Part shown: in pieces, positions 2,372 through 32,528 of the stretch
How positions within the stretch are numbered: the first letter of the stretch is position 1
Layout of the letters: each line of letters opens with the position of its first letter
DNA from: Thermoplasmata archaeon
Lineage (GTDB): Archaea > Thermoplasmatota > Thermoplasmata > RBG-16-68-12
Direction: 5' to 3'
Assembly: GCA_035557795.1 (NCBI GenBank)
Contig: DATMDM010000166.1
Span: 2,735-66,734, forward strand
DNA length: 64,000 nt
Program-made: the position numbers and the translations under genes
The notes under the pieces: model-generated
The model's database searches: none
Told to the model about the DNA's origin: nothing
The model's input: the letters and a program-made list of their open reading frames with translations, nothing else

Positions 2372-2947
2372 TTATCGCGGCTGATTCTCCCAGACATCTC
2401 CAGACCGCAGGACTGTCCGGATGAGCTCGGCATCCTTGGTTTCGAATGTGAAGAACGCGTCGTGATCGAAACCGATGTACGCCGTGATCAGGTCGAACAG
2501 GGCTGCCCGAAGGGGTTCCGTGCCTGTCGCCTTTTCAACCAAATCCTGGATGCTTTGGAGGCTTAGCCGTTTCTCAGACAAGAGGGCGGCGAACGAGACG
2601 CCAGGCGAAGTCAAGCCGACGTAATCCACCGGCTGGGCACCGCTTTCCGCGATGAAAGCAGCGTATGGCTCGGGGTATTGCGCGATTCTTCCATTGTGTT
2701 CCCCGACTCCGTATCGACTGTCTAGCAGAAGGTGAGAATTCGTGAGCACCTCACTTGGAGGTCTTCCTGATATGAGCAAAAGACATGATGTAAATTCATT
2801 CCGGATGTTTTCGAGGGTTTTCCCCAAAGAGTTCATCTGCCTATCTCGGACGGGTCCGCTATCTCCTGGTTTGAATTCCCCCCATATCGAGTGGATCCCT
2901 CCGGGACTCAACGAATAGCTGTACATAACGAAGGGTTCGAAGTGCAA
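2372..2947 (-). CDS. Hypothetical protein (low-GC orphan ORF between the tRNA-Pro att repeats)
   Basis: 191-aa ORF. Local GC is clearly lower (about 2560-3000) than the flanks. No recognisable motif. Confidence 0.4.
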   Translation of the reverse strand: MHFEPFVMYSYSLSPGGIHSIWGEFKPGDSGPVRDRQMNSLGKTLENIRNEFTSCLLLISGRPPSEVLTNSHLLLDSRYGVGEHNGRIAQYPEPYAAFIAESGAQPVDYVGLTSPGVSFAALLSEKRLSLQSIQDLVEKATGTEPLRAALFDLITAYIGFDHDAFFTFETKDAELIRTVLRSGDVWENQPR

Positions 2948-3020
2948 TCGCGGTCATCCCCGAATTCGTATCTTCCGGAATAAGGATTATCCCTTGGGAA
3001 GCGATCAAGTAGTAAATTCC

Positions 3021-3039
3021 AAGTCTGCCCAGCCCCACT
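3021..3039 (+). repeat. Direct repeat copy 2 of the tRNA-Pro 3' end (aagtctgcccagccccact); att-like
   Basis: Matches 2346..2364. Brackets the 2372..2947 ORF. Confidence 0.6.
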
Positions 3040-3082
3040 CCACGCGGCCTACCGGGAAATCGGATGCGGCGGAGGGAAGTCC

Positions 3083-3556
3083 ATGGCACGGAAACCCACG
3101 ACGGCAGAGCGGAGATGGCATCGGAAGATGGCCGCGGGGCTGTTCAATGAGGTCTGGCGGCTCTTGGAGAAGAAGCGCACGCCCGCCGAAGACGACCGGA
3201 TGATCCACGCGGCGCATGCGTCTCGCTACCATTGGGGTGAGGTCGGGACCGCCGTGAATCGCGCGATCGGAGAGTGGCAGGTGTCTCACGTCTACGCGAT
3301 CCTCGGTCGCCCGGAGCCTGCGACGTATCACGCAGTCCGCTCCCTCGCGATGTGCAAGGAAAACGGCATCAATGATTTCCCGCTCGCCTTCGCCTACGAA
3401 GCCTTGGCACGCGCCGACGCGGTCGCGGGGCGGAAGCGAGACCTCCGGCGGCATCTGGCCCTCGCGCGAGAGGTTGGCTCGAGGATCAAGGACAAGGAGG
3501 ACCGCGACCTTCTGTTCCGAGACCTCAAGTCGATTCGACCCGGTCTGAGCCGTTGA
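3083..3556 (+). CDS. Hypothetical protein
   Basis: 157-aa ORF with normal codon usage. No motif recognised. Confidence 0.35.
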   Translation: MARKPTTAERRWHRKMAAGLFNEVWRLLEKKRTPAEDDRMIHAAHASRYHWGEVGTAVNRAIGEWQVSHVYAILGRPEPATYHAVRSLAMCKENGINDFPLAFAYEALARADAVAGRKRDLRRHLALAREVGSRIKDKEDRDLLFRDLKSIRPGLSR

Positions 3557-10011: not shown

Positions 10012-10086
10012 GCTCCCGTAGTCTAGTCCGGTCAAGGATCGGGGCCTTTCGAGCCTCAGACGCGGGTTCGAATCCCGCCGGGAGCA
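10012..10086 (+). tRNA. tRNA-Glu(UUC), CCA not encoded
   Basis: GCTCCCG acceptor pairs with CGGGAGC. Anticodon loop CTTTCGA. T-arm GCGGG-TTCGAAT-CCCGC. Discriminator A. Confidence 0.85.
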
Positions 10087-10206
10087 TGCTATTTTATATC
10101 ACGCGGCTGGTCGATGCTTGTTGAGTTGAAACAAGGAGACGGCAGGCTTATGCGGTCACCCTCGGTAGCTCAAGGAAAAGCAAGTCACTAGGGGTAGGGA
10201 ACCGCT

Positions 10207-11100
10207 GTGGATCTTTACGGACCGGGTTTCGAAGAACCCTTCGCGCTGGTCAAACGGCGCATATTCCGAACCGGAGTCCTGCAGGGGCTCCTCTTCGTCG
10301 CTGGAAGTCTTCCAACCGCGGTTGCGGGCGCAATCTACGGACTTTCCCCGGTCTTGGCGATCGGGATCTTGGGACTCGTCCTGAGTCTCTTGCCGTTTTC
10401 GGGCGCCGTTCGCATCTATCGCCGGCTAAGTGACCCGAGGGTAACGTCGGATGGGGTATACCTCCCGCTTCCGAAACGGTTCCTCGAAGGAGGATACCGT
10501 GTGCCTTCGGAAGCAATCGCCGGGGCTGAGCTCCACGAATCCCCGCCTAAGGCGTTTGTGAGCTTCGAGGTGAACACGGCAGAGGGTAGGCGGACGGTTG
10601 CCATCGAGAAGGGCCTGATCGTCAGCTGGCCTGCCTTCGTCCGGGCTCTCCATCTCCTCGGGATCAAGGGCGTCCGCGCACCGCACTCACCGCGGCCAGT
10701 GTCTGTGTTTGAGGACATGTTCAATCGATCGGGACGCCGCCGGTTGACGTACCTTGGTTTCGTCGGAGGCTTGGCCTGCAGCATTGTGGTCGGATTTTCC
10801 CTCAGGGTGAGCTTTACGCTCGTGGCGTTTGCGTTCTCGTCGCTTGTTTCGGTGCTAGTCGTCGCCCTTGCGCTTCTCTTAGCCCGGCGCGTTCCTCTTC
10901 ACGTCCAAGTCGATGGGCAACATGTTTCGATCCGGTTGTTCGGGCGGTCAAAGCCAGTCCGGTTGCAGCTCCCGCAGATTCGAGTTGGGGCCGCTTGGGT
11001 GACAAGGTTGTCCGGTGGTTCACAGGTAACGTACGGTCCCCTGGACTCGGAAATCGTTCGTCGTTTGGAGTCCGTTGCAAGGCCGGAGGGAGACACTTGA
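10207..11100 (+). CDS. Membrane-anchored protein, paralog family A (N-terminal TM helices plus C-terminal soluble domain)
   Basis: 297 aa. Same architecture as the 13202 and 13915 ORFs. Confidence 0.4.
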   Translation: MDLYGPGFEEPFALVKRRIFRTGVLQGLLFVAGSLPTAVAGAIYGLSPVLAIGILGLVLSLLPFSGAVRIYRRLSDPRVTSDGVYLPLPKRFLEGGYRVPSEAIAGAELHESPPKAFVSFEVNTAEGRRTVAIEKGLIVSWPAFVRALHLLGIKGVRAPHSPRPVSVFEDMFNRSGRRRLTYLGFVGGLACSIVVGFSLRVSFTLVAFAFSSLVSVLVVALALLLARRVPLHVQVDGQHVSIRLFGRSKPVRLQLPQIRVGAAWVTRLSGGSQVTYGPLDSEIVRRLESVARPEGDT

Positions 11101-13193
11101 GCCTCTCAGGTGGTTCGCGGTTCATCGCGATCCTTGGCCTCACTGTTTCGATCAGCCGCAACACAGTTGAAGGCGCGTGGCTTGGGCTCGTAATGGCTGG
11201 GATTGGTTTGCTCATCACAGTTGCCAACCAGGACATTTTTGACCTCAGCCCTGTTTCTCCTTTAAACGCCGTTGAAGAGGTTGTGAGTACGGTGGCGGTC
11301 GGAGCCGCCGTCGCGGCGTACTGGTGGACCACGCCGCCGGGGACCCGAAACACCGTGCAGGGGCACTACCTGTCCGTCGACGTGCCGGACGATTCGACGT
11401 CCGTGAACATCACGCTGCAGATGTGGTCCTACGACTCCAGCGGACACAACCAGCACTCGAACATCGCGATTGCCCAGGATTGCGAGACGGTCGGGGGCGT
11501 CCTCGTCTGCTATGATCGGTACGGTCCGGTGACGTTCCAGTACTACCTTCAGGCGCCATACCACTCCACGTGGTACAACTTCTCAGGCCACGACGGCGGC
11601 AGTCTTCAAGCCCTTCCACTCACCGTCATCGTCTCGACGATCGTGCCGTACCGGATCGGCACGTCCCTCATCGTGCCGGCAGACTATTCGGGGATTTACA
11701 ACGTCACCGATTCCCAAGGGAACATCCTCGCGCGGCGCTACACGGGCGAACCGCGGTTCGTCGCGCTCCTGCTTAACGTGACGTCGATTGCGGGCACGGA
11801 TCCGGAGGCGATCCTTGTCCCGCGGTCGTTGTTCTTCTCGACTCTCCTCTACTCATATCTGAACTCGACGAGTCCGCCGACCCTCGTGAGCCAGCTCTCG
11901 TATGGGCAGAACGCTACGACGGCGTCGGCGAACGCGGACGACCTGCAGGAAGTCCTCTACGGCAACGTCACCCTAGACGACTTCCTGACGATCGTCGACG
12001 ACCTCGAGGTCAACGCGTCCGGTGGGACGATCGGCCGATCGTTCGTCTTCTCGATCAACGACGAGGTCGCAGGGAACCCGCTCTTCTACTCCCTCCCCGA
12101 CCGCGTCGTGCGGCTCGTCGGCTACCTCCCGCCCCTGACGGCTTCCTCGTGGTCGTACACGTTCTGCACGTCGTCTTGCGGTCAACCCACGCAGAGGCCG
12201 TGGTGGGAAGCCGTCTGGAATGGCTTCGTGTCGGTCGTCACGGGCGTGGTGCAAGCGGCGATCGTCATCGCCGCGACCGCATTCAAGGCGATCAGTACCG
12301 TCCTCGCGCAGGTCGGCGCGTGGCTCGTGGCCGCCGGGAACGCGGTCAAGAGCGCGGTGCAAGCGGCGGCGAAAGTGCTGGGACAGGTGCTTGAATTCGT
12401 TACGTTGCTCGTTAGGCAGATGGTCCAAAAGCTCATCGGTCCGCTACTCGCCGGGCTGAGCGAATCGACATCTGAGACACGCCTATCGGTCCAGAGCGCG
12501 TACCCCTCAGCCCTACGGCAGTACCAAACCATGGGCTCTCTCGACCCTTCTACGATTCAGGGGCTCGTCAACGTTCTCGCCGGGAAATACATCTGGATCC
12601 TCCTCGGGCTGAGTGCCGCCGTCGTGGCGATAGGAATTGCTCTCTACCCGATCGCACCAATTGGTTTGGCAATCATGACCGTAGCGGGCGCTATCGCGGG
12701 TGCGCTACTCTTCAAGGCAATTACCGGCGTCGACTTCGCGCTGCCGGCGAAGACTCCGTCCGTTGGACTCATGAACCCATTCAGCAGTAGCGTCTCCGAG
12801 ATTGCCTTAGCCTACGCCAACGCGGTGAGTCCGGACCCACAACTTGCCGACGAGCGGAAATCTGAGGCGGCTCTGGCGTCTATCGTTTTCGGTGCCTTCG
12901 CGGGATTCATCGGTCTAGCTGCCCTCTCAGCGGTCGATCCCACCGGTACCACTATCGCCCTCGCCGGAGTGGTCATATCAGCTGCAGGAGCTCTCTTGGC
13001 AGGGGCGGCAGTGCTTCCTGGAGCATCGGGCCTTGCAATTCTCGCTCTAGGGTTCGCGTTTTCTGGTTTCGTGGCCGCCCTCGCGGGCTTGGCGGCCTCA
13101 TACATCGCCGGGAATTCTGGCGCCGTCTTCGCGGGTTGGATCAGCTTCGATTTGTCACTCGGGTCGATTGCTTTCGCGATAGTGGCTTTGTGA
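11097..13193 (+). CDS. Large predicted membrane glycoprotein (N-terminal TM hairpin, sequon-rich ectodomain, C-terminal Ala/Gly-rich multi-TM region)
   Basis: ~698 aa from a TTG overlapping the upstream stop. At least 8 N-x-S/T sequons. The C-terminal ~250 aa are strongly hydrophobic and A/G-rich. No catalytic motifs. Confidence 0.45.
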   Translation: MSLSGGSRFIAILGLTVSISRNTVEGAWLGLVMAGIGLLITVANQDIFDLSPVSPLNAVEEVVSTVAVGAAVAAYWWTTPPGTRNTVQGHYLSVDVPDDSTSVNITLQMWSYDSSGHNQHSNIAIAQDCETVGGVLVCYDRYGPVTFQYYLQAPYHSTWYNFSGHDGGSLQALPLTVIVSTIVPYRIGTSLIVPADYSGIYNVTDSQGNILARRYTGEPRFVALLLNVTSIAGTDPEAILVPRSLFFSTLLYSYLNSTSPPTLVSQLSYGQNATTASANADDLQEVLYGNVTLDDFLTIVDDLEVNASGGTIGRSFVFSINDEVAGNPLFYSLPDRVVRLVGYLPPLTASSWSYTFCTSSCGQPTQRPWWEAVWNGFVSVVTGVVQAAIVIAATAFKAISTVLAQVGAWLVAAGNAVKSAVQAAAKVLGQVLEFVTLLVRQMVQKLIGPLLAGLSESTSETRLSVQSAYPSALRQYQTMGSLDPSTIQGLVNVLAGKYIWILLGLSAAVVAIGIALYPIAPIGLAIMTVAGAIAGALLFKAITGVDFALPAKTPSVGLMNPFSSSVSEIALAYANAVSPDPQLADERKSEAALASIVFGAFAGFIGLAALSAVDPTGTTIALAGVVISAAGALLAGAAVLPGASGLAILALGFAFSGFVAALAGLAASYIAGNSGAVFAGWISFDLSLGSIAFAIVAL

Positions 13194-13201
13194 GGTGAGG
13201 A

Positions 13202-13627
13202 ATGTCGGAGTGGGTGATTCTGACCACGGAGCGGTTTATCCGAAGGCTCCGCTTGATTTACCTCGCGGCCGCCATTGGACTAGTAATCGTCGCCATCCTT
13301 CTGTGGTTGTCCACGCTTAGTAGTCTGGCTGTGATTTCCGGGGCCGCGGCTTGGGCGGTCACGGTTGCGATCGCGGTCGCGAATTACAACGCGAAGCGAG
13401 GAGTCCCATCACGCGTAACTTTCGAGGAATCAGGCATTCGAGTCAGGTACCTGACCGGAAAGGAAAGGGGCATCTCATGGGTCGAAATCGAATCGATTCG
13501 CAAAGTCTCTTCAGGACCGTTGATTCTCAAATTGAGGGGAGGCGCGCCATTAACAATCCGCACTTCCAGAGACGAAGCCGCCATGGCCGTCTCTCTGTTT
13601 CAAGCCCATCAGATTCCAGTTACCTAA
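13202..13627 (+). CDS. Membrane-anchored protein, paralog family A
   Basis: 141 aa. Two N-terminal TM helices, then a ~70-aa soluble domain. Confidence 0.4.
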   Translation: MSEWVILTTERFIRRLRLIYLAAAIGLVIVAILLWLSTLSSLAVISGAAAWAVTVAIAVANYNAKRGVPSRVTFEESGIRVRYLTGKERGISWVEIESIRKVSSGPLILKLRGGAPLTIRTSRDEAAMAVSLFQAHQIPVT

Positions 13628-13899
13628 TGAGTCCGCCAAACTGGCCGGCGATGCCGCGACTTAAGCTCACAGGGTTCACAGTGGCAATCATCGGCCTGTT
13701 CGTTTCTCTGAACAGCAACACAATCGAAGGTGCATGGCCCGGGCTCGTCCTAGCTGGGATTGGTTTGCTCATCACAGTTGCCAACCAGGACATTTTCGAC
13801 CTTAGCCCTGTTTCTCCCTTGAACGCCGTTGAAGAGGTTGTGAGTACGGCGGCGGTCGGAGCCGCCGTCGCGACGTTGGCGGCAGACTATGGGCGGTAA
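13627..13899 (+). CDS. Truncated paralog of the N-terminal TM hairpin of the 11097 glycoprotein
   Basis: MSPPNWPAMPRLKLTGFTVAIIGLFVSLNSNTIEGAWPGLVLAGIGLLITVANQDIFDLSPVSPLNAVEEVV aligns residue for residue with the start of the 11097 ORF. About 121 bp are ~95% identical at nucleotide level. Confidence 0.35.
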   Translation: MSPPNWPAMPRLKLTGFTVAIIGLFVSLNSNTIEGAWPGLVLAGIGLLITVANQDIFDLSPVSPLNAVEEVVSTAAVGAAVATLAADYGR

Positions 13900-13914
13900 C
13901 CAGGGAAGGTCATC

Positions 13915-14472
13915 TTGTTGACAGCGAAGCAAGGTTCGCTTGTCAAGCAGACAGAACGCGCTTTTCGAGGAGGTGGCTTAGGCGTTCTCGTGGCTTCTGC
14001 AATCGTCTTGCTTGTGGCGCTCGGCCTTTTCCCCGGAATTACCCTGCGACCGATTAGCGGGTCAGAGACACCAACGAAAGTCGCCGCGCTCGTCGCGTTC
14101 GCGGCTGGAATTCTCGTCGGCCTCGTGCTTCTCGGGTATTCGTACCGCGGGTTCGAAGAAATGACTCTTGATGCGAACGGTGTAATCTTCCCCATACGCT
14201 CCTTGGGCAGAATGGTTCGAGGGCTTCGACAGGTCGTCCGCTACTCCGACATCAGTGAGGCTCACTTCCTCGTGAACACGAAAGGGGTTCCACTGGTCGA
14301 ACTGAGGGTTCGCTCGCCTGCGGGAAGGACCCGACTCCTTCGGTTCGCCACCAGCTGGTCCTCGAATCCCGACCGTTTCATCGAAACCCTTTCGGCGCAC
14401 GTCCAAGTCAGCAAAGTGGTGGGCTGGGAGCAGCTGTGGTTCGAATGGCGCTCAAAGGCAAAGCGTCAATGA
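13915..14472 (+). CDS. Membrane-anchored protein, paralog family A
   Basis: 185 aa. N-terminal TM helices, then a soluble beta-rich domain. Confidence 0.4.
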   Translation: MLTAKQGSLVKQTERAFRGGGLGVLVASAIVLLVALGLFPGITLRPISGSETPTKVAALVAFAAGILVGLVLLGYSYRGFEEMTLDANGVIFPIRSLGRMVRGLRQVVRYSDISEAHFLVNTKGVPLVELRVRSPAGRTRLLRFATSWSSNPDRFIETLSAHVQVSKVVGWEQLWFEWRSKAKRQ

Positions 14473-14628
14473 CTCCTACGCCTGCCTAGGCCCCGCCAAC
14501 GACTCATGGGAGAAACTCCTGATCCATCACCTAGCGTTGCGAGTGCCACGCCGGCCGCGGAAATCCGGTTTCCTGTTGAACCGGTCGTCGCATGACGCTT
14601 GCCGGAGGGACACGCTAACGCGCTGCCG

Positions 14629-14760
14629 TGGAACCGGCTACAAGTACGGCTTCAGAGCCCAATCGTAGAAACTTTCCACTGGCATATCTCTTGATGGGCT
14701 TGCCGGGTTTGCTTGCCAATAGACCGACTTCCCGCCGGGAGCATGCTATTTCATAGCACG
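14629..14760 (+). repeat. att-like direct repeat copy 2 (conserved ~100-bp leader plus tRNA-Glu 3'-end core)
   Basis: ggaaccggctacaagtacggc...tttccactggcatatctcttgatgggcttgccgggtttgcttgccaatagaccgacttcccgccgggagcatgctattt. Confidence 0.6.
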
Positions 14761-14930
14761 CTTACGGTCGAGTTCAGCGACTCCTTGCTCGGCTTTTTTG
14801 CAACCATCGGCGGCTGACGCATCGCGCAGGAGGAAGCAGACACTGATACCCGGTGCTCTACCTCCTGGCGTAACGTCGGAGAGGATTGATGCGTCCACGC
14901 AACGATGCGGACAATCGCCGATCCGATCGT

Positions 14931-15347
14931 CTAAGATGAGCGGACCACTTCCGGACTGAAGGCCTGGGTGAGCTGCAAGAGCCGGTCGTAGGCGGTTCGG
15001 TGTCGCAGCTTGATTGTAATCGAGTCTCCTTGATCGGGCGTAATCGTCATATGTCCGACCCCCAAACCCGGCTTCTTGAGCTTGATGCGGCGTATTTGGT
15101 CCTTTGCAATATCGAACTCCTTTAACCGGTCGAGGTCCTCGATCACCTTGGCGCTCTCCTCAGGAGATAGGTTTGGCATGAGCTCGCCTTTGATGAAGCC
15201 GGCTAGGGTGCCGCCGAGGGCTCCACCGCCGTGGCTGCCAAGGTCGATGCCGATCACTCTAGTCGTCGTGAAGTACAGCCCGTATCCGACGTGGAATCCC
15301 TTTTCCAGGAAGCCGCCCGCGAATCCTCCAAGAAACGTCTCTCCCAT
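14931..15347 (-). CDS. Hypothetical glycine-rich protein
   Basis: Trimmed to internal M (MGETFLGG). No known motif. Confidence 0.3.
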   Translation of the reverse strand: MGETFLGGFAGGFLEKGFHVGYGLYFTTTRVIGIDLGSHGGGALGGTLAGFIKGELMPNLSPEESAKVIEDLDRLKEFDIAKDQIRRIKLKKPGLGVGHMTITPDQGDSITIKLRHRTAYDRLLQLTQAFSPEVVRSS

Positions 15348-15424
15348 GTTGGCGTCCAGTCGGCTCCACTCGGGTGTCGGCAGAGTCCGCACGGCTACGT
15401 TCGGGCTTGAAGCTTGTGTTTCAA

Positions 15425-15507
15425 GGATTCGAACCTCTTCGCGAGCGGAGCCCGACATCGTACGACGGCGAACCGATGTTCAGCTCCTGGCGTGAGGTTC
15501 GAATCCC
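15425..15507. repeat. Inverted repeat with tRNA T-arm-like arms (ggattcgaacctc ... gaggttcgaatcc); possible tRNA-derived fragment or structured RNA
   Basis: 13-nt perfect inverted arms ~57 nt apart, with extra internal complementarity (ggagc/gctcc). Neither arm folds into a valid T-arm or cloverleaf. Confidence 0.35.
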
Positions 15508-15674
15508 GTGAGGTCCGCACCCCATGGGATGACCGACAGGCAACCGACAGTCCTCGATTTCTGGATGATCCATGCCTCGGGATCCTCTTCCCGGGAAGAT
15601 CCACGAAATTGCGCGACAGTACCCGCGGGCGTTCTCGGTCAAGCGCCATATAATGGACGCGTCGTCTCCTGTCC

Positions 15675-16274
15675 GTGCGCAGAGTCCAGGCCACGACCGG
15701 TCCGATCACGGACCGGGGGACGAAAGGCTCCAGGACAGTACAAGCGGCCTTCGTGGCAGGCGCTACTGGGAAATGGAAGGTCGAGAGACTAGAAGCTATC
15801 CGCGGGCCGCCGTTGGCGAAGGCCAGCCACTTGGAGGTCAGCCTCGGACTCAAGACAACTCCGCAGCACGCTGCGTGGATACTCCGCGGGATCACCAGCC
15901 ACGAGCGTTATGCAACACGGTCCGAGCACGACCGTCTCGCCGCCGTGCAACCCCCTCTTGAACGGGCGGGAGCGACAGGAGCCGCCCTCATCCCCATCGC
16001 CAAGTCAGCGGAATGGTGGGAGCTGCCCCAGGACGAACGACGTGCGATTCTCGAAGAAGACTCGCACCATATCGCGATCGGCCTCGAGTACCTCCCTGCG
16101 ATCGCCCGACGCCTCTACCATTGCCGCGACCTTGGCCAGCCCTTTGACTTCCTGACATGGTTCGAGTACTCACCCTCCGATGCGGCCTCGTTCGAGCAGC
16201 TCGTAACGCGGCTTCGCAGAACGCGAGAATGGGAGTACGTCGAACGCGAAATCGACATCAGGCTCGCCCGCTAG
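15675..16274 (+). CDS. Chlorite dismutase (Cld/HemQ/DyP) family protein, island-borne copy
   Basis: The C-terminal EWWELPQDERRAILEEDSHHIAIGLEYL...FDFLTWFEYSPSDAASFEQLVTRLRRTREWEY matches the Cld/HemQ C-terminal pattern. The start is uncertain; it may lie further upstream. Confidence 0.5.
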   Translation: MRRVQATTGPITDRGTKGSRTVQAAFVAGATGKWKVERLEAIRGPPLAKASHLEVSLGLKTTPQHAAWILRGITSHERYATRSEHDRLAAVQPPLERAGATGAALIPIAKSAEWWELPQDERRAILEEDSHHIAIGLEYLPAIARRLYHCRDLGQPFDFLTWFEYSPSDAASFEQLVTRLRRTREWEYVEREIDIRLAR

Positions 16275-16435
16275 GCACGGTTCAGGCCTTGTCTGTCGGT
16301 GTAGCGCTCGTCACCGGCTGGAAAGGGTACGGGCCTGCTGGGATTCGTCTCAATCCATGTGATCGCACTCGGTCACAGAGGACTAAGTTCCGCCTTCGAT
16401 CGGGTGGCGTTATGGAAAGCGATGATTCCCGTGCC

Positions 16436-16570
16436 GGGAACCGGCCGTAAGTACGGCTTCAAAGCCTGTCGGTAGAAAACTTTCCACTGGCACATCTCTT
16501 GATGGGCTTGCCGGGTTCACTTGCCAATAGACCGACTTCCCGCCGGGAGCATGCTATTTTGTGACACGCC
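16436..16570 (+). repeat. att-like direct repeat copy 3
   Basis: Same leader plus core as copy 2, with about 85-90% identity. Confidence 0.6.
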
Positions 16571-16712
16571 GCATCATTCGCCGCACGCGCGAAATGTTTC
16601 CGACACCCGCTTAATCGACTTCGGTTGCCGACCTACTCGCCCGGTGTGCCGAGTACACGCGGTTTCTGATAAAGCCCAACTTTCGCTCCGGACTCCAGCC
16701 ACCCGGGCTCAG

Positions 16713-18131
16713 CTAGATGGCGCAGCAACTGAGCTTGTCCACGTCCTCGAAGAATGAGAGGGCGGCGAGCTTGATCGCCTCGCTGTGGGTTGGGAACACG
16801 TGGACGGTATCGATGATGTCCTCGAGGGTGAGGCTATGCTTTACCGCGAGGACGCCCTCGTGGATCATGTCCGGCGCCAGGGAGGCCAGAATGTGCACCC
16901 CGAGGATCTTGTGGCTCTTCGCCTCCGCGACAATCTTCACCAGGCCGCGGGTGTCTTCCACGATTAGGGGCTTGGGGACCTGCTTCAACATAATCGTATT
17001 GCAAGCGCACCGGACTCGGCCGCCCGCGTTCGCCTGGGCGTCGGTAGGCCCGACGGAGGCGACGGCGGGATTGGTGAACACGGCGTGAGGCACCGCGCGG
17101 TAATCCATCTTCAGGCCGCGATTGGCCAAGGCGTTCTCCGCAGCGATGTATCCTTCTTTCGCCGCAACAGTCTCGAGCATCGGTTTCCCGATCACGTCGC
17201 CCGCCGCGAAGATGTCTGGCGCGGTCGATCGCATCTCGGAGTCGACCTTCACCCCCTGATCTTGCTTCACCTCGACGCGCGCCGCCTGGAGGTTAAGCCC
17301 CGCGGTGTTGGGGGTTCGACCCGTGGCTAGGAGCAGCTCGTCCGCTTCGATGGTGCGTTTCCGGTCGCCAATGCGAGCGACCATGATCTTCCGCCCGTTT
17401 CGCTGTTCGGCTGAGAGGACTTCCGCGCCGGCATGGATCTCGACTCCATCCTCTTTCAGGTACTGGTTCAAGTACTCAGAAATCTCCGGCTCCTCTTCCG
17501 GAACGATTCGCGGGCTGCGCTGCAGGACCGTCACCTGTGTGCCGAGATGCTGGTACATCTGGGCGAACTCCAAGCCAAGGGCGCGGCCGCCGAGGACGAT
17601 CATGGAATCGGGTCGCTCCTTCAGGGACAAGGCCTCCACGTTTGTGAGGTAGTCCACCTTGTCGATTCCCGGAACCGAAGGAATCGTGGGTGAGGAACCG
17701 GTACCGATGAGGAACTTGTCTCCTTCGTACCGCTCCGTGCCGACCTTGACTTCATGGGATGAGACAAAGGCGGCATGGCCCCGCACGTATTCCACGTCCT
17801 TCAGGGACGCGAGGACATCCGCGTACTTCGCCTTGCGGAGGTCGGCAACCAAGCGTTCCTTCGAGCGCATCACCGCTCGGAATTCCGCCGACCATCCGTC
17901 TTCGAGATGGAGCCCCGGGAACGGACGGTTCGCCACGCGAAAGAACTGGTCCCCGACCGCAAGGAGGCGTTTGCTGGGAACGCAGCCCACGTTCACGCAG
18001 GTGCCGCCGAGGATGCCGCCGTCAATCATCAAGGCCTTCGCTCCGTTTCGATCGGCGCGGATCGCTGCGCTGAAGGCCGCTGCTCCGCCGCCGAGAATGA
18101 TCAGGTCTTGTCGCTTCGCCATCTGTTCCAC
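16713..18131 (-). CDS. merA: Mercuric reductase (core MerA, no NmerA domain)
   Basis: GGTCVNVGCVPSK redox-active disulfide. FAD and NAD Rossmann motifs. C-terminal vicinal Cys pair (LSCCAI) diagnostic for MerA. 472 aa. Confidence 0.85.
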   Translation of the reverse strand: MEQMAKRQDLIILGGGAAAFSAAIRADRNGAKALMIDGGILGGTCVNVGCVPSKRLLAVGDQFFRVANRPFPGLHLEDGWSAEFRAVMRSKERLVADLRKAKYADVLASLKDVEYVRGHAAFVSSHEVKVGTERYEGDKFLIGTGSSPTIPSVPGIDKVDYLTNVEALSLKERPDSMIVLGGRALGLEFAQMYQHLGTQVTVLQRSPRIVPEEEPEISEYLNQYLKEDGVEIHAGAEVLSAEQRNGRKIMVARIGDRKRTIEADELLLATGRTPNTAGLNLQAARVEVKQDQGVKVDSEMRSTAPDIFAAGDVIGKPMLETVAAKEGYIAAENALANRGLKMDYRAVPHAVFTNPAVASVGPTDAQANAGGRVRCACNTIMLKQVPKPLIVEDTRGLVKIVAEAKSHKILGVHILASLAPDMIHEGVLAVKHSLTLEDIIDTVHVFPTHSEAIKLAALSFFEDVDKLSCCAI

Positions 18132-18167
18132 CTTTCCCTCCTCGCTTTCAAATCCATCGGCGCGGAC

Positions 18168-19859
18168 TCATCGAGTAGATTCGCCAACCGAGCGGGACCT
18201 ATGGGAATCTTTGGGCTTCTGCGCAGCCACGACCACGCTCTCCGCCCCGAACGTCTTCGTGATTCGCCTCGTGCTCTCCGAGGATGACTTCGCAAAGTAG
18301 TCGAGCCGCTTCAGGACTCGGACATCGGAGAACCCCGCCGACTTGATCATCTCTAGGTACTCCGGCTCCACCGCCGCCCCGCCGATGCAGTCTGCCCACA
18401 GCTGCGGGTTCAGCCCGCACACGGTGCCCACGTCCTCCTGCACGACAATGTCCGCGAGCTGGAGGCGCCCGCCCGGCTTGAGGACACGGCGAATCTCCGC
18501 GAACGCCGCGACCTTGTCCGGCACGAGGTTCAGGACGCCATTGCTCGTGACGACGTCGACGCTTGAGTCGGGGAGAGGGATCTCCGTGGCGTCCCCCGCT
18601 AGAATCTCGATGTTCTCTGCGCCTATCCGCTCGATGTTCCCGCGCGCCTTCGCGATCATCGCGGGCGTGATGTCGAGCCCGTAGACCTTCCCCGACGGAC
18701 CGGTCTTGAGGCACGCATACAGCACGTCCGTCCCGGAGCCGGACCCGATGTCGAGCACGGTATCGCCGGACCGAATCGCGTTGGCGGCGTGCGGATAGCC
18801 GACGCCTGCGAAGGATTCTGTCGCCGTCGGCGGCAGCTTACGCAGGTCCTCTTCCGGGTAGCCCACGTATAGGAGCGCCTCCAGACCGAGCGGGAAGTGG
18901 TACCCCTTGTCGGGCCGCGTCGCGACCTCCGTGTATAGCGATTGCACCGCCTTCGTGATGATCGGTTTGAGGTCTGAGACCGTCTCGACCTGGACTTCGG
19001 GCGGCACGTGCGAGATCTTCACGATTTCAAGAGGCAGCTTGTCCGCCTTCGTTCCCTTCCACTGCCAGGCTTCGATTCCTTCGAAGTCGTGGTGGGTCAG
19101 GAGCCCGGCTCGCTCCAACTGGGATAGCCGTATTTCGGCGTCTTCCACCCCAATCCGGAAGACGGATGCGATTTCATTCGCGGTCGTCAAGTCCCTGTGG
19201 TGCTCCAAGTATTCCAGGATGTCCGCAGGACTTCGCTTCGGGAGCCCGGGGGCGAGCTTGTCCACCATGTCCTCGAACGGTTTCGCGGTGAACGTCGCGC
19301 CCTTTATTTCCGCCTGTCCTCGACGATTCCGCACGAGGAGGGCGTCAAAGTTCGCATGGGCCCGCGCCATCTCCTGCCGATCTCGCTCGAACGCGTCCTT
19401 CACCGCATCCGAATGGATTTCCTTTCGGAAGCGATCCTTGTCGAGCCCAACCTCCGCCGCCAATTTCACGAGGGTGTCTTCCGTGGCGGGCAGACATTCG
19501 AGCCCGAACGCTTCCATCATCCGTCGGAAGTACTTCGCTGCTAGTTCCCTGGATTGGAGCTCCGCCGCCTTGAACGCTCGGCACGCGGGGAACGAGCTCT
19601 CGACCTTGCTCCGGAAGTAGTAATCGGGCCGCACGGGCATTTTGATGAGCGCGATGGATTCGAGGATCCAGTCAACCGTGCCCCGCTCATCGACCCCGTT
19701 CTCCCGCATCCACTCCGCTAAGGTCTCGAACTCCCCGCCCATCTTGTACGTGACCTCCACGTTATCCCCGTACACCTCCCGCAGGCGTTGCAGAATCGGC
19801 TCAAGGCCCCACGACCACCAGCACCACGGGTCTGCGAAGTGGACTATCTCGATGGGCAC
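18168..19859 (-). CDS. arsM: Three-domain fusion: DsbA-like thioredoxin-fold (CxxS variant), winged-HTH, and arsenite S-adenosylmethionine methyltransferase (ArsM)
   Basis: N-terminus DPWCWWSWG (DsbA/FrnE-like). Middle ILEYLEHHRDLTTANEIASV...LERAGLL (wHTH). C-terminus VLDIGSGSGTDV...GKVYGLDITPAMIAKAR...LKPGGRLQLADIV with conserved Cys (TVCG, DCIGGA) typical of ArsM. Confidence 0.65.
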   Translation of the reverse strand: MPIEIVHFADPWCWWSWGLEPILQRLREVYGDNVEVTYKMGGEFETLAEWMRENGVDERGTVDWILESIALIKMPVRPDYYFRSKVESSFPACRAFKAAELQSRELAAKYFRRMMEAFGLECLPATEDTLVKLAAEVGLDKDRFRKEIHSDAVKDAFERDRQEMARAHANFDALLVRNRRGQAEIKGATFTAKPFEDMVDKLAPGLPKRSPADILEYLEHHRDLTTANEIASVFRIGVEDAEIRLSQLERAGLLTHHDFEGIEAWQWKGTKADKLPLEIVKISHVPPEVQVETVSDLKPIITKAVQSLYTEVATRPDKGYHFPLGLEALLYVGYPEEDLRKLPPTATESFAGVGYPHAANAIRSGDTVLDIGSGSGTDVLYACLKTGPSGKVYGLDITPAMIAKARGNIERIGAENIEILAGDATEIPLPDSSVDVVTSNGVLNLVPDKVAAFAEIRRVLKPGGRLQLADIVVQEDVGTVCGLNPQLWADCIGGAAVEPEYLEMIKSAGFSDVRVLKRLDYFAKSSSESTRRITKTFGAESVVVAAQKPKDSHRSRSVGESTR

Positions 19860-20268
19860 GTCGTCTCTCGACGCTGTATCGCCCCCGCGCCGGCATCCGA
19901 GGGCCTCGACTTAAGTCTTCCCGGACGACGTCGCGACGACTCCTTGCCGGTCCGCATCGCCCGAAATTGCCGCGCATTTCTTGAACGCATCCGTCGGGGC
20001 GTTGACGATTGGTTGGCAGCCTGTCACCACACGTTCCTATCGCCGCTCAGAACCGTGGGAGCGGGGCCAGGAGGTCAAACGCAACGGGCAAAAGCCCACC
20101 AGTATTACGAAGATCAATGCGATCTCATACACACGCGCTCGCACTTGGCGGCATCAAAGGTCAGGTCGTCCGCATCAACAAGAAGACGACCAAGCCAATC
20201 CGACCGTTGGAACCCGAGCAAGTGGAAGCTTGACTGGACGGGGACAACAAGAGCGCTAATTCCCGTAG

Positions 20269-20386
20269 CGGGAACCGGCCGTACGCACAGTTCTAAGGCC
20301 CAACGATAGAAATTTTCCACTGGCATATCTCTCGATGGGCTTGCCGGGTTTGCTTGCCAATGTACCGACTTCCCGCCAGGAGCATC
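20269..20386 (+). repeat. att-like direct repeat copy 4 (degenerate core ttcccgccaggagcat); likely island boundary
   Basis: The leader is conserved. The core diverges after gagcat. Confidence 0.5.
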
Positions 20387-20575
20387 CCCAAACGAGTTCG
20401 CGGAGCCTTCGTCAAGTTCGAGCGCGCCAGTTGCCGTCTATATAGTCCCTGTCAGTCTCGCCTTTATAGACGCGATTCAATCGGGCCCCTCGAAGGTTTT
20501 TGTGTGAACGCCTCATTCGCTCGACACGCCCAACGCGCCGCTCGCGGTTCCGGAAGGCCGCGGCTGCTTCGGCTC

Positions 20576-21349
20576 ATGATCGTCATCGCGGCGGTCCTGA
20601 TCGTTTCGGTCTTGCCGGCGACCGTGCGCGCGAACAATTCCGAGACCAGGCCCACGATCGTCCTCGTCCACGGCGCTTGGGCCTCGGCGCCCGGCTGGGA
20701 CACGGTCGTCGCGGGGCTCCAGAAGGACGGGTTCGCGACCGCGACCCCGACCCTCGGCCTGCTGTCGATCGCCGACGACGTCGCGATCGTCCGTGCGGTG
20801 CTCGACGGCATCTCGGGCCCGAAGATCCTCGTTGGACACTCGTACGGTGGGATCGTGATCTCCAACGCGGCGTACGGCCGGTCCGACGTGCTCGGCCTTG
20901 TCTTCACCGCAGCGTTCGTTCCCGATCAGGGTGACTCGATATTCAGCCTCGGCGCGGGCTTCCATACATCCGAGGCGTTCAACCACTTCATCTGGACGGG
21001 CACGCCCTTCGCTTCACCGGCCTTCATTGACCCGGCCTTTTTCGCGCAGTTCTTCTGTCAGGACCTCAACCCGAACCTCGGGGCGATCCTGAACGATGAG
21101 CAGATCCCGCTCAACTTCCCGATCGCTGTGACCCCGTCCGGGCCGGTCGCGTGGCATACGCTGCCGTCCTGGTACGCCATCTCGGGGAAGGACCTGATGG
21201 TCGATCCTGCGGAGGAACTCTTCATGGCGCAGCGGGCCGGGGCGACGACCGTCTTGTTCCCTGCGGCGAGTCACGCGGGAGGAATCACCCACTATGCGAC
21301 CGGATTCGTGAAGCTCATCGAGGAGGCCGTCCAGGAGACGGCGGATTGA
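20576..21349 (+). CDS. Secreted alpha/beta hydrolase
   Basis: Signal-peptide-like N-terminus, then LVHGAW...GHSYGG nucleophile elbow. The listed ORF start at 20354 overlaps att copy 4, so the true start is probably GTG 20504 or ATG 20576. Confidence 0.55.
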   Translation: MIVIAAVLIVSVLPATVRANNSETRPTIVLVHGAWASAPGWDTVVAGLQKDGFATATPTLGLLSIADDVAIVRAVLDGISGPKILVGHSYGGIVISNAAYGRSDVLGLVFTAAFVPDQGDSIFSLGAGFHTSEAFNHFIWTGTPFASPAFIDPAFFAQFFCQDLNPNLGAILNDEQIPLNFPIAVTPSGPVAWHTLPSWYAISGKDLMVDPAEELFMAQRAGATTVLFPAASHAGGITHYATGFVKLIEEAVQETAD

Positions 21350-21452
21350 CCGGGCCGGGTTCGACCAAAACCCTATACGTCGCCGAAGATGTTAGACGCC
21401 GAGCCAAGCACGCAGCTGACCACTCCTTAACGGTCAGCGATCAAGGTCAAAC

Positions 21453-21959
21453 GTGAAGATGAAAGAGTTTCAGACGAAAAACCAAAAAGTCTCGCCGTTG
21501 AAGCCCGGCACCAAGGCGCCAAACTTCACCCTCAAGACGACGCCGGATCAGCACGTCTCTCTCAGGGATTTTCTCGGAAGGCCCGTGGTACTTTGCTTCT
21601 ATCCTGCGGATTGGAGCCCCGTCTGCAGCGACCAGCTGGGACTCTATGCGCAGTTGATGTCTGAGTTCAGGAAGTTCGACGCCGAACTCCTCGGAGTCTC
21701 CGTCGACGGAGTCTGGAGTCATCTGGCGTTTTCGAAGGATCGCAACCTGAACTTCCCCCTTCTCTCCGACTTCGATCCGAAAGGGGCGATCTCCAGGACC
21801 TACGGGGTCTTCACCGAACGCAACGGCGAATCGGCGCGGGCGCTCTTCGTGATCGATCCGAAGGGGATCATCCGATGGAGCTACCTCTCACCGGACGGGG
21901 TCAATCCGGGGGCTGACGGAATCCTCTCCGCACTGGAGAAACTCAAATCACCCGGCTGA
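21453..21959 (+). CDS. Peroxiredoxin (AhpC/TSA/Bcp family)
   Basis: FYPADWSPVCSDQ peroxidatic Cys motif. 168 aa. Confidence 0.8.
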   Translation: MKMKEFQTKNQKVSPLKPGTKAPNFTLKTTPDQHVSLRDFLGRPVVLCFYPADWSPVCSDQLGLYAQLMSEFRKFDAELLGVSVDGVWSHLAFSKDRNLNFPLLSDFDPKGAISRTYGVFTERNGESARALFVIDPKGIIRWSYLSPDGVNPGADGILSALEKLKSPG

Positions 21960-21964
21960 CGCGA

Positions 21965-22522
21965 GTGATCATGGCGAAGCAGAATTACCAACCGCCGAGA
22001 CTGACTCTGCCCGTCGGAGAACGGGACCACAGTGAAGGGCCGTCCGATGCTCGAATGGTGCTCGTCGAGTACGGGGATTACCAGTGTCCCTACTGCGGCG
22101 CGGCCTACCCGATCGTGAAGAAGGTCCAGAAGGAACTTGGAACGAAGCTGCGGTTCGTCTTCAGAAACTTCCCCATCACGACCTCCCACCCGGAAGCGGA
22201 ATGGGCCGCGGAAACCGCCGAAGCGGCCGCCGACCAAGGGAGGTTCTGGGAGATGCACGATTTTCTCTACGAGAACCAAGCATCGCTCGGCGACCACGGA
22301 TTCTTCAACACTTACGAGAAGAAACTCAAGCTGGATGTGAAGCGGCTCGAGCAGGAGGTGGCTCAGCACGTCCATGCAGGCAGAGTTCGAGAAGACTTCA
22401 TGAGCGGCGTCCGAAGCGGCGTCAACGGGACGCCGACGTTCTTCATCGGGGCCGCTCGATACGATGGCTATCCCGGATTTGGTCCCTTGATCGCCGCGCT
22501 CGAAAAGGCCGAGAAGGGTTGA
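21965..22522 (+). CDS. DsbA-like thiol:disulfide oxidoreductase (thioredoxin fold, CPYC)
   Basis: YGDYQCPYCG active site. 185 aa. Confidence 0.65.
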   Translation: MIMAKQNYQPPRLTLPVGERDHSEGPSDARMVLVEYGDYQCPYCGAAYPIVKKVQKELGTKLRFVFRNFPITTSHPEAEWAAETAEAAADQGRFWEMHDFLYENQASLGDHGFFNTYEKKLKLDVKRLEQEVAQHVHAGRVREDFMSGVRSGVNGTPTFFIGAARYDGYPGFGPLIAALEKAEKG

Positions 22523-22623
22523 CCGTGACCGCTCCGTAGCAGGGTCGCGTTAGTCGGCACCTCGGTGCGATTGCTTGAACTCATAGCAAAGCGATAAATC
22601 CAGCCCTCACTTAGTCCTCGACT

Positions 22624-23079
22624 ATGCCCATGATTGACGTGTACGCGCCGGCAGACCTTTTTCCGGCCGGGACCAACAGTCTGCTTGGCAAGGAGCTCAC
22701 CATGGCCGTTCTCCGCGCGGAGGGCGTGGCAAGCCCCGGGCCCTTCCATCTGAATAACACCGCTGCTTTCATCCACCGAATGGACCCGAACGCGGTCCAC
22801 ACCGCGGCAACCAGCTCCGCCCGCACGGTGCGTGTCCAGGTCATCACGCCTCCCGCGGCGTTGACCCGCGAAGGCCAGAAGCAACTTGTCAAAGAAATCA
22901 CGGAGATCGTGACCAAGGTCTCTGGAGATCCGACACAGGCGAGTCGCACCTGGGTAATACTCACCGAGGCGGCAGAGGGCGGTTGGGGGCTCTCGGGCAC
23001 CGCCTTTGGCCGCGAGGAGTTCGCGGCGCTCGCCGCCAAGGCGGCCGCGGCCCGCGCGAAGAGCGTGACGCCCCAGTAG
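22624..23079 (+). CDS. Tautomerase-superfamily-like protein (tentative)
   Basis: The N-terminal MPMIDVY looks like the Pro1 start of 4-oxalocrotonate tautomerase-like proteins. 151 aa. Weak call. Confidence 0.3.
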   Translation: MPMIDVYAPADLFPAGTNSLLGKELTMAVLRAEGVASPGPFHLNNTAAFIHRMDPNAVHTAATSSARTVRVQVITPPAALTREGQKQLVKEITEIVTKVSGDPTQASRTWVILTEAAEGGWGLSGTAFGREEFAALAAKAAAARAKSVTPQ

Positions 23080-31150: not shown

Positions 31151-31265
31151 CGAGTCCTCCCTCGGCGCGGACCGAGGCCGTCACCCCTCATATCGATTTT
31201 GGTCGAATCCCCCCGGCCCCGATTCATGCGCAAGAGATTTGACCGCGGTCCGTGATGGCCCACCC

Positions 31266-31787
31266 ATGACGCTGGAAGGAAGAAAAGTCGTCGTGCTCGC
31301 GGAAGATGGATACGAGGATCTCGAACTCTGGGTGCCATACTACCGGCTCGTGGAGGAAGGGGCCGAGGTAGTCCTCGCAGGTCACGAGAAGCGGACTTAC
31401 ACGTCGAAGCACTCGTACCCGTGCGAGGTCGACGTGACGGCCGCCAACCTGAAGGCGAAGGATTTCGACGCCGTCGTGATTCCCGGAGGCGTTGCGGGCC
31501 CGGATCGGATGCGCCAGCACAAGGAAATCCTGTCGTTCGTCCGCTCGATGGACGAAGGCCGCAAAGTCGTTGCAGCGATCTGCCATGCGGCGTGGGTGCC
31601 GATTAGCGCGGGGATCGTCAAAGGCCGCCGGATGACCTCGTATGCAAGCGTGCGAGACGACTGTCTGAACGCGGGCGCGGACTGGGTCGACAAGGAATGT
31701 GTGGTCGACGGGAATCTCATCACGTCGCGTTTCCCAGACGATCTTCCCGCGTTCTGTCGGGCCATCGTCTCCGCTTTGACGAAGTGA
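31266..31787 (+). CDS. DJ-1/PfpI family protein
   Basis: AICHAAW nucleophile-elbow Cys. 174 aa from internal M86 of the listed ORF. Confidence 0.75.
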   Translation: MTLEGRKVVVLAEDGYEDLELWVPYYRLVEEGAEVVLAGHEKRTYTSKHSYPCEVDVTAANLKAKDFDAVVIPGGVAGPDRMRQHKEILSFVRSMDEGRKVVAAICHAAWVPISAGIVKGRRMTSYASVRDDCLNAGADWVDKECVVDGNLITSRFPDDLPAFCRAIVSALTK

Positions 31788-31796
31788 GCGGCGTCG

Positions 31797-32426
31797 ATGG
31801 TCCGCGCACCCGCGGACTGGCGGAGCGTGCTTCGTCGCGCCGAGGTCCTCGTCCGACGCCGTGACATGCGGAGCCTCGAGCTGCTCCTTCCCGCCCTCCG
31901 TTGGCGGTACCTGACGGCCCGCAACCGAGCCGTGGTCCTCCTCGCCCGTTTGGGCCCGATTGCGGTCCCGCCTCTCCTCCAAACCCTGGAAAGCTCGCGG
32001 ACCGCCACCGAGCGCTCGGGAGCGGCCGATGCACTCGGCCGGATTGGGGATTCCCGGGCCGTCTCGCGACTGATCCGCGCGCTCGCGGATCCCGCGATGA
32101 CCGTGCGGCGGGCTGCGATGATCGCATTGCTGCGGCTCGAAGCGATGGACGCCGTGCCAAAGATCGCGCGCCTCCTGGAGGACGAGTCCGGTGGAGTGCG
32201 CTTGACTGCCGCGGGCGTCCTCGGGAAGCTCGAAGACCCTCGAGCCGTTCCGGCTCTCGTCCGCGCGCTCGACGACCCGCAATGGTTTGTGCGTCAGGCG
32301 TCCGCAACGGCGCTCGGAGCGATCGGGGACCGACGGGCCGCACCCGCGCTGCAGAAGGCAACTCACGATCCTCGGAAATCCGTCGCGCGGGCGGCGGCCG
32401 CGGCGCTGCGGGCGTTGCGAGCGTAA
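31797..32426 (+). CDS. HEAT-repeat (PBS-lyase-like) protein
   Basis: Repeated AxxALGxIGDxRAVxxLIxAL units. Confidence 0.6.
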   Translation: MVRAPADWRSVLRRAEVLVRRRDMRSLELLLPALRWRYLTARNRAVVLLARLGPIAVPPLLQTLESSRTATERSGAADALGRIGDSRAVSRLIRALADPAMTVRRAAMIALLRLEAMDAVPKIARLLEDESGGVRLTAAGVLGKLEDPRAVPALVRALDDPQWFVRQASATALGAIGDRRAAPALQKATHDPRKSVARAAAAALRALRA

Positions 32427-32528
32427 CAGATCCCGACGAACCCAAGTCGGACGTCGGGCGAACTTGCTCACGATTCTGTGAGCGCCAAGGAGTAGGCGGA
32501 GAAAGTCTTAAGCGAGCCGCAGGGTTAG

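Follow-up and report, generated by a model that had tools for sequence, protein, structure and literature searches.

A tRNA-Glu-anchored array of gene cassettes in soil Thermoplasmata, probably shuffled by a recombinase encoded elsewhere

Several described systems accumulate genes at a fixed site, and they provide the closest counterparts to the locus reported here, an array of small gene cassettes that begins inside a transfer RNA gene, tRNA-Glu, of a Thermoplasmata archaeon. The locus lies in a stretch of 64,000 nucleotides (nt) of contig DATMDM010000166.1 (assembly GCA_035557795.1), which is referred to throughout as the window. Cis-mobilisable elements (CIMEs), and more broadly the site-specific accretion of integrative and conjugative elements (ICEs) and integrative and mobilisable elements (IMEs) in Streptococcus, comprise att-flanked units without recombination genes that sit in tandem at a tRNA-type site. 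They are presumed to be mobilised by the integrase of another element, and are usually single, ICE-derived and bacterial. In the tycheposon islands of Prochlorococcus, integration occurs repeatedly at one tRNA 3′ end, newer units displace older ones, partial tRNA copies are scattered through the island, and the cargo consists of niche-adaptive plug-in genes (bioRxiv 10.1101/2020.12.28.424599). Integrons and clusters of attC sites lacking integron-integrases (CALINs) hold mostly one-gene cassettes, which are shuffled between genomes and have a fixed primary site at one end (PMC9668308). Finally, archaeal ‘suicidal’ capture of the Sulfolobus spindle-shaped virus (SSV) type is found next to tRNA genes, with a direct repeat of the tRNA 3′ end and without an intact integrase (She et al. 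2001; PMC8371274, PMC7253208), and archaeal integrases can act unaided on short sites (PMC8371274).

The region downstream of tRNA-Glu is integron-like in its behaviour, because cassette sets and orders differ among related genomes and no recombinase gene is found nearby. We interpret it as a tRNA-anchored cassette array, wherein a recombinase supplied in trans acts site-specifically on the tRNA 3′ end to take up cassettes and reorder them, and we assign this interpretation a probability of roughly 70%.

Anatomy of the array in the window

The G+C content of the window is 60-68%; this, an intron-containing tRNA-Pro gene and the soil MAGs (metagenome-assembled genomes) that are its nearest public relatives mark it as part of an archaeal chromosome. 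The anchor of the array, comparable to an attB or attI site, is an intact tRNA-Glu(TTC) gene recognised by both ARAGORN and Rfam (RF00005, 61.4 bits). Its 14 3′-terminal bases, comprising the last base of the T-loop, the 3′ strand of the T-stem, the 3′ strand of the acceptor stem and the discriminator, constitute the core that is repeated along the array:

10012-10086, plus strand: tRNA-Glu(TTC), intact
10073-10086, plus strand: core copy 1, TCCCGCCGGGAGCA, the 3′ end of tRNA-Glu
10087-10104, plus strand: cassette left-end motif TGCTATTTTATATCACGC, family i
14730-14743, plus strand: core copy 2, exact 21-mer match
16538-16551, plus strand: core copy 3, exact 21-mer match
20371-20384, plus strand: core copy 4, TCCCGCCAGGAGCA, one mismatch, with a different left end after it

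The recurrence of the tRNA-Glu 3′ end was the starting point of the original prediction, and it is borne out. The 21-mer TCCCGCCGGGAGCATGCTATT, which consists of the 14-base core and 7 downstream bases, is present at exactly three sites (10073, 14730 and 16538), against none expected by chance in 100 shuffles. The degenerate copy at 20371 is without the TGCTATTT extension and continues differently from copies 1-3. The left-end motif is conserved after cores 1-3 and after many cores elsewhere, and doubles as the T-rich trailer of tRNA-Glu. Core-to-core spacings of 4657, 1808 and 3833 bp agree with the three segments first estimated at about 4.6, 1.8 and 3.8 kb. These segments, and a decayed continuation of the array, hold the following genes:

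10087-14729: cassette E1, 4657 bp core to core, with membrane/surface open reading frames (ORFs) at 10207-11100, 10995-13193, 13202-13627 and 13915-14472, all on the plus strand
14744-16537: cassette E2, 1808 bp, with an ORF of family c18 (14931-15458, minus strand) and a Cld-like ORF (15675-16274, plus strand)
16552-20370: cassette E3, 3833 bp, with merA (16713-18131, minus strand) and a fusion of DsbA, HTH and ArsM-like methyltransferase parts (18168-19859, minus strand)
20385-23079: decayed distal cassettes, comprising the next three entries
20354-21349: ORF for an alpha/beta hydrolase
21453-21959 and 21965-22522: peroxiredoxin (Prx) and DsbA-like protein
22624-23079: tautomerase-like protein

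The gene content first proposed for these segments holds. The MerA assignment is firm (TIGR02053, 561 bits, above the model cutoff) and the membrane/surface ORFs of E1 are confirmed, with no family found for them in Pfam or NCBIfam except weak bPH matches. The Cld-like ORF gives a partial match to Pfam Chlor_dismutase (1.9e-10), and ArsM models match the fusion protein below their cutoffs. The c18 gene of E2 forms a separate cassette elsewhere. Cassette genes have a lower G+C content at third codon positions (GC3) than the flanking housekeeping genes, with values of 0.62-0.75 for E1 genes as compared to 0.8-0.9 in the flanks. Within E1, a 193-nt direct repeat of 86% identity (11127-11319 and 13684-13876) duplicates the N-terminal transmembrane region of the 732-aa ORF upstream of ORF 13915-14472.

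The array does not stop at 20386, where the island had been predicted to end, but runs on in decayed form to ~23.1 kb. The core between the hydrolase and Prx genes has been lost (~21350-21365), and a core with two mismatches precedes the tautomerase gene at 22663-22675. Identified by Pfam, the same distal genes constitute separate cassettes with intact cores in other loci.

Related loci and cassette movement

Copies 2-4 of the core are preceded by a common non-tRNA sequence. A blastn comparison of the window with itself delimits it to 14624-14751, 16432-16559 and 20252-20385, with 82-91% identity over 88-135 nt (E values of 1e-31 to 1e-43), and finds no further copy of this leader within the 64 kb. 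A degenerate leader pattern was used to search public genomes and soil metagenomes. Leader and core were found in four soil Thermoplasmata metagenome-assembled genomes (MAGs), labelled Thermoplasmata or ‘Methanobacteriota archaeon EA_11/12/17’, and the pattern matched 76 soil metagenome contigs, of which 63 were kept. The 13 discarded contigs matched by chance, within a conserved protein-coding gene whose translation is tentatively metK-like. The comparison set thus comprises the window and 67 related loci (4 from MAGs and 63 from metagenomes), giving 68 loci and 453 kb, wherein up to 10 kb of surrounding sequence was covered for each metagenome match.

A tRNA-Glu gene is visible in 10 of these loci, and in all 10 the leaders lie downstream of it and in the same orientation, with the same genes on the left flank (PAC2, DUF835 and a membrane protein). 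Leader and core occur only in arrays downstream of tRNA-Glu, which is not the distribution of a generic dispersed repeat, and related genomes differ in their gene content at this tRNA. Scanning the oriented loci with the 13-mer CCCGCCGGGAGCA, allowing at most one mismatch, gave 137 cores, all co-oriented. Between them lie 69 complete cassettes with 31 distinct gene contents; 31 of the 69 carry a single gene. Cassette length ranges from 0.5 to 8.6 kb with a median of 1.4 kb, arrays reach five or more units, and the genes occur in both orientations. The cargo includes a P-type metal ATPase, merA together with merB and an HxlR regulator, merA with the ArsM-like fusion, GNAT acetyltransferase, DNA methyltransferase, S-adenosylmethionine (SAM) methyltransferases, peroxiredoxin with a DsbA-like protein, tautomerase, SDR, alpha/beta hydrolase, giant lectin-like surface proteins and small membrane proteins.

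Movement of the cassettes is seen most directly in three related loci, L028, L067 and L068. L067 equals L028 but for an extra 1463-bp cassette placed precisely at the tRNA core; the alignments on its two sides share the 15 nt TCCCGCCGGGAGCAT, a 15-bp duplication, and the flanks are 97.7-98.8% identical. From the core onward, L067 and L068 share 2.66 kb at 99.0% identity, and upstream of that point the tRNA is present in one of the two and the leader of another cassette in the other. The window itself shows the same precise, core-bounded presence/absence polymorphism when compared with L027 and L039. E1 is 98.3% identical to L027 until ~10 nt past the TGCTATTT that follows the core, and the cassettes beyond that point differ. 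The E3 cassette recurs in L004 at 89.7% identity and in a different array position. Near-identical cassettes (98-99%) occur at different positions and beside different neighbours.

The order of cassettes also changes. The window has merA followed by the hydrolase, and L039 has the hydrolase followed by merA. The merA cassette is proximal to the Prx-DsbA-tautomerase genes in the window and distal to them in L004, L028 and L079, while a DNA methyltransferase cassette precedes Prx in L047 and follows tautomerase-SDR in L073. These swaps indicate that deletion alone is insufficient to account for the differences between arrays. The serial integration of related elements that had been proposed for this island thus stands as far as serial site-specific insertion into one tRNA gene is concerned, with support from the 67 loci, although the units are small cassettes of which only the ends are related.

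Many cores are preceded by right ends other than the leader. A second right-end family, ..(A)CCTAGCGTTAGTYGGCAC, lies directly before the core in L003 (4052), L015 (1535), L033 (5076), L047 (1751), L055 (1025), L072 (5807) and others, and two more types end in ..GCCCAGGGGTTTGCGA and ..GGGTAAGACGAAT. Right-end types 1 and 2 share a recurring TTGGCA/TGCCAA half-site, possibly one that a protein binds. Two kinds of irregular junction were also seen. In L011 (Ga0137417_1420782, ~3008-3242) two leaders stand head to head with merA fragments on either side, most likely a fold-back assembly artefact and less likely an inversion between inverted cores. In L006 (e.g. at 4786), L025, L064, L078 and L080, a truncated core (CCCGCCGG and then AATAG...) comes after the leader and unrelated DNA comes next; the arrangement resembles a deletion, or an illegitimate joint, within the core at an array end.

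The leader beside the core

The leader had been described as a conserved element of ~100 bp. A common sequence is indeed present before copies 2-4, although it turns out to be composite. Its universal part, delimited by alignment, is the 64-65 nt beside the core; the 50-180 nt upstream derive from the 3′ end of a small gene, c74, now decayed:

14666-14729, plus strand: universal leader, copy 2, 64 nt from TAG to core
~14624-14665, upstream of leader copy 2: frameshifted c74 3′ remnant
16473-16537, plus strand: universal leader, copy 3, 65 nt
16419-16472, plus strand: last 18 codons of c74, AMIPVPGTGRKYGFKACR, then stop (tblastn with c74)
20307-20370, plus strand: universal leader, copy 4, 64 nt
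20129-20306, plus strand: c74 pseudogene remnant, approximately its last 58 codons, with a stop and a frameshift (tblastn and six-frame reading)

In an alignment of 39 distinct copies from other loci, the universal leader starts at TAG, is 64-65 nt long, and reads TAGAAACTTTCCACTGGCATATCTCTTGATGGGCTTGCCGGGTTTGCTTGCCAATGTACCGACT directly followed by the core TCCCGCCGGGAGCA. The opening TAG is the stop codon of c74, a gene for a 162-aa protein (MHWPNQ...GTGRKYGFKAQQ) that is known from no organisms other than these soil archaea. Two contigs carry the intact gene (L052, 2504-2989; L056, 2865-3350), and elsewhere it is progressively 5′-deleted. The c74 product was considered as a candidate mobility protein and set aside: it has three close homologues, gave no family or structure match in Pfam, PHROGs, NCBIfam or the PDB, and its AlphaFold model is too poor for use (predicted local distance difference test score, pLDDT, of 47.5).

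Across cassettes, mean pairwise identity is 87-89% for the 64-68 nt beside the core, as compared to 71% for the adjacent c74 remnant within its own family; between families the remnant is unalignable. Being better conserved than the remnant next to it, the leader is under constraint of its own, and from its conservation we suggest that it may serve as a protein-binding arm of the cassette site.

The leader is non-coding. A minus-strand frame through it does encode a conserved peptide on six-frame reading, and a search of 5.8 billion proteins with this peptide returned five ORFs. These share only ~40 residues, in shifting frames and with unrelated flanks, which indicates a conserved DNA element and not a protein. 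No reading frame is open through the core in all copies. A coding fragment, such as part of a split SSV-type integrase, was accordingly rejected, as the ORFs are spurious and a conserved minus-strand TAG blocks the frame at the core.

Nor is the leader structured. It has no Rfam match, ARAGORN finds no tRNA in it, folding z-scores on both strands lie between -1.35 and +0.25, and RNAalifold finds no compensatory pairs among 26 distinct copies (covariation term -0.02). A structured RNA was rejected on these grounds, and with it the earlier suggestion that the leader could be a small RNA. Reconstituted cassette junctions likewise show no consistent single-stranded DNA hairpin, with z-scores from -2.1 to +2.3.

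Proposed mechanism, alternatives and comparison with known systems

Every cassette begins with a short left end, continues with its cargo of one gene or a few and a right end, and closes with a 14-bp core that has the sequence of the tRNA-Glu 3′ end. In the window, the right end is the 64-65-nt leader that follows the stop codon of the decayed c74. In the mechanism that we propose, the core of a circular cassette would recombine either with the tRNA's own core or with any of those that earlier cassettes brought into the array. An insertion at the tRNA would restore the tRNA 3′ end, bring in a new T-rich trailer and displace older cassettes distally, while recombination of core with core would excise or delete cassettes, and re-insertion would reorder them. 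The recombinase would be encoded away from the array, and would most likely be a tyrosine integrase belonging to a helper element or to the host. The class of enzyme, its action in trans and the circular intermediates are what we infer. The site itself is asymmetric, with a 64-nt arm, a 14-15-bp block of identity and an arm of ~18 nt, and this asymmetry, together with the precise insertions that rebuild the tRNA, fits conservative site-specific recombination.

A further duplication of a tRNA 3′ end lies elsewhere in the window. The gene for tRNA-Pro(TGG) (2268-2363), which contains an intron according to ARAGORN, has its 3′ end duplicated as an exact 16-17-nt repeat, TCTGCCCAGCCCCACT, at 2348-2364 and 3023-3039. 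Between the two copies lies just one ORF, of low GC3 (2372-2947, minus strand, 191 aa) and with no Pfam family. The duplicated segment has the same sublocation in the tRNA as the tRNA-Glu core, and the right end is unrelated to the leader. An insertion of the same kind at a second tRNA gives a hint that the mechanism may read tRNA 3′ ends generally.

No recombinase was found in cis, which agrees with the absence of an integrase from the island as first described. Six-frame ORFs of at least 60 aa from the window and the 67 loci (~0.5 Mb) were searched using phmmer with XerC, XerD, lambda Int, Cre and gamma-delta resolvase as queries, and no tyrosine or serine recombinase was detected; the best E value was 0.28. 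As a positive control, the same queries matched an integrase in an unrelated viral contig at E = 3.5e-22. Pfam scans of ~70 ORFs and cluster representatives gave no integrase, transposase or Cas1, and neither Cas1 nor PolB is found among the Pfam-scanned ORFs, which are a subset of all ORFs. In the window, a 415-aa ORF beside tRNA-Val (31224-32471, minus strand) belongs to no family. Its translation is very rich in arginine, and the ORF is probably spurious, an antisense frame rather than an integrase gene.

Several observations weigh against the trans-acting mechanism. The recombinase was found nowhere, and no circular junction or free element was seen. Pattern scans of IMG/VR gave no match to the leader or to the core plus left end, PLSDB and a phage collection gave none either, and IMG/VR matches to a pattern of the tRNA 3′ half were limited to unrelated phage tRNAs; the free element carrying the leader that had been envisaged was thus not recovered. 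An integrase could lie farther along some arrays, given the 10-kb reach around each match, and SSV-type integrases are divergent enough that they could escape the phmmer queries, though Pfam also found none. The function ascribed to the leader is read from its conservation alone. Lastly, the distal boundaries in the window are decayed, with one core lost and others carrying one or two mismatches, and at least part of this array may therefore be immobile now.

That decay is also what would be expected if the segments were inert scars, meaning the immobile remains of full-size integrative plasmids or proviruses from which the integrase was deleted and only cargo is left. Tandem integration with later loss of the integrase is documented for archaeal elements (PMC8371274), and the c74 remnants beside the leader form a series of nested 5′ deletions. 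We nevertheless consider such scars unlikely. Not even a fragment of an integrase is present in the ~0.5 Mb that hold 137 cores, many units are single genes of 0.5-1.5 kb with precise core boundaries, and the leader is conserved above its flanks. The original prediction had left decayed remnants and mobilisation in trans side by side; 98-99% identical cassettes in different contexts, together with order swaps beyond the reach of deletion alone, lead us to favour the latter. Rearrangement could in principle also be achieved by general homologous recombination between the repeated leaders, with no site-specific enzyme, a process that has been invoked for module exchange between tandem elements (PMC8371274) and for which the leaders, at 64-130 nt and ~90% identity, have sufficient length to be substrates. 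We give this very little weight, as the tRNA and the leader share only 14-15 nt and yet tRNA-side insertions are bounded exactly there, and the same 13-14 nt also mark the borders of cassettes whose right ends (types 2-4) are unrelated.

The 14-15-bp length of the repeat and its position at a tRNA 3′ end are reminiscent of family-2 casposons, and tRNA-Pro too has its 16-17-nt duplication around one ORF. If the cassettes were non-autonomous casposon-like or transposon-like insertions, the repeat would be a target-site duplication. This is barely plausible for units that lack terminal inverted repeats (by direct reading, the left end and the reverse-complemented right end share ~5 nt), whose ends are strongly asymmetric at 64 nt versus ~18 nt, and for which Cas1 and PolB are missing among the scanned ORFs. 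A functional RNA, be it a small RNA, a 3′ untranslated region element or a tRNA-like module, would explain the conservation of the leader without recourse to recombination, and would suit an element whose first triplet is a stop codon and whose last bases are a tRNA 3′ end with a run of T behind it. The Rfam, ARAGORN, folding and covariation results given above make it very improbable. We give almost no credence to a classical integron or CALIN with attC cassettes and IntI, despite the mostly single-gene cassettes separated by recombination sites and the report of integrons in archaeal MAGs (PMC9668308). There is no IntI, and the genes to the left of the tRNA are the PAC2, DUF835 and membrane protein genes; junction hairpins are inconsistent, the alignment contains no GTTRRRY/RYYYAAC pair, both orientations occur among the cassette genes, and the array begins inside a tRNA gene.

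Cassette exchange by a recombinase acting in trans remains our preferred explanation. If it is correct, these abundant uncultivated soil archaea would possess a compact gene-shuffling platform for exchanging, as plug-in units, genes of resistance to mercury, arsenic and copper along with redox, restriction-modification-type and surface genes, and the locus would represent a linear-site, tRNA-anchored counterpart to integrons and to the tycheposon and CIME islands of bacteria. It would also raise the concrete question of which enzyme recognises the 14-bp tRNA 3′ end and the 64-nt arm. The short defined sites could serve as landing pads for genome engineering in archaea. More tentatively, and as a possibility rather than an expectation, soil Thermoplasmata might own an integron-like capture system in which the tRNA 3′ end is the primary site, the arms are linear, and the unlinked recombinase has been domesticated by the host or is entirely new.

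Set against the known systems, the array has the intact proximal tRNA and the distal repeats of the tRNA 3′ segment that are generic traits of tRNA-targeting islands, and it lacks the integrase gene. Tycheposons carry their own tyrosine recombinase and a replication module, and their islands contain integrase fragments, whereas here no integrase occurs in ~0.5 Mb, the units are much smaller and often consist of one gene, and the host is an archaeon. As in CIMEs, the units stand in tandem at a tRNA-type site, each flanked by att sites and devoid of genes for recombination or transfer; the differences are the long arrays of five or more units, the many cassette types and the lack of a known cognate autonomous element. 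The adaptive cargo of metal resistance, redox and surface genes is shared with integrons, but in place of IntI and folded attC sites we see a 14-bp tRNA 3′ end with linear arms, and genes in both orientations. After SSV-type capture, one end carries the int(N) half and the other the int(C) half, and att lies within the int frame; in our loci no frame crosses the core and no integrase-like sequence is present. The unusual features are single-gene modularity at scale, lineage-wide reshuffling, the complete lack of integrase remnants and a dedicated conserved arm. In short, the system functions like an integron or like CIME/tycheposon accretion, yet it lacks the defining characters of integrons, SSV-type capture and casposons, and we rate it as a new variant of the tRNA-island and integron-like systems already known.

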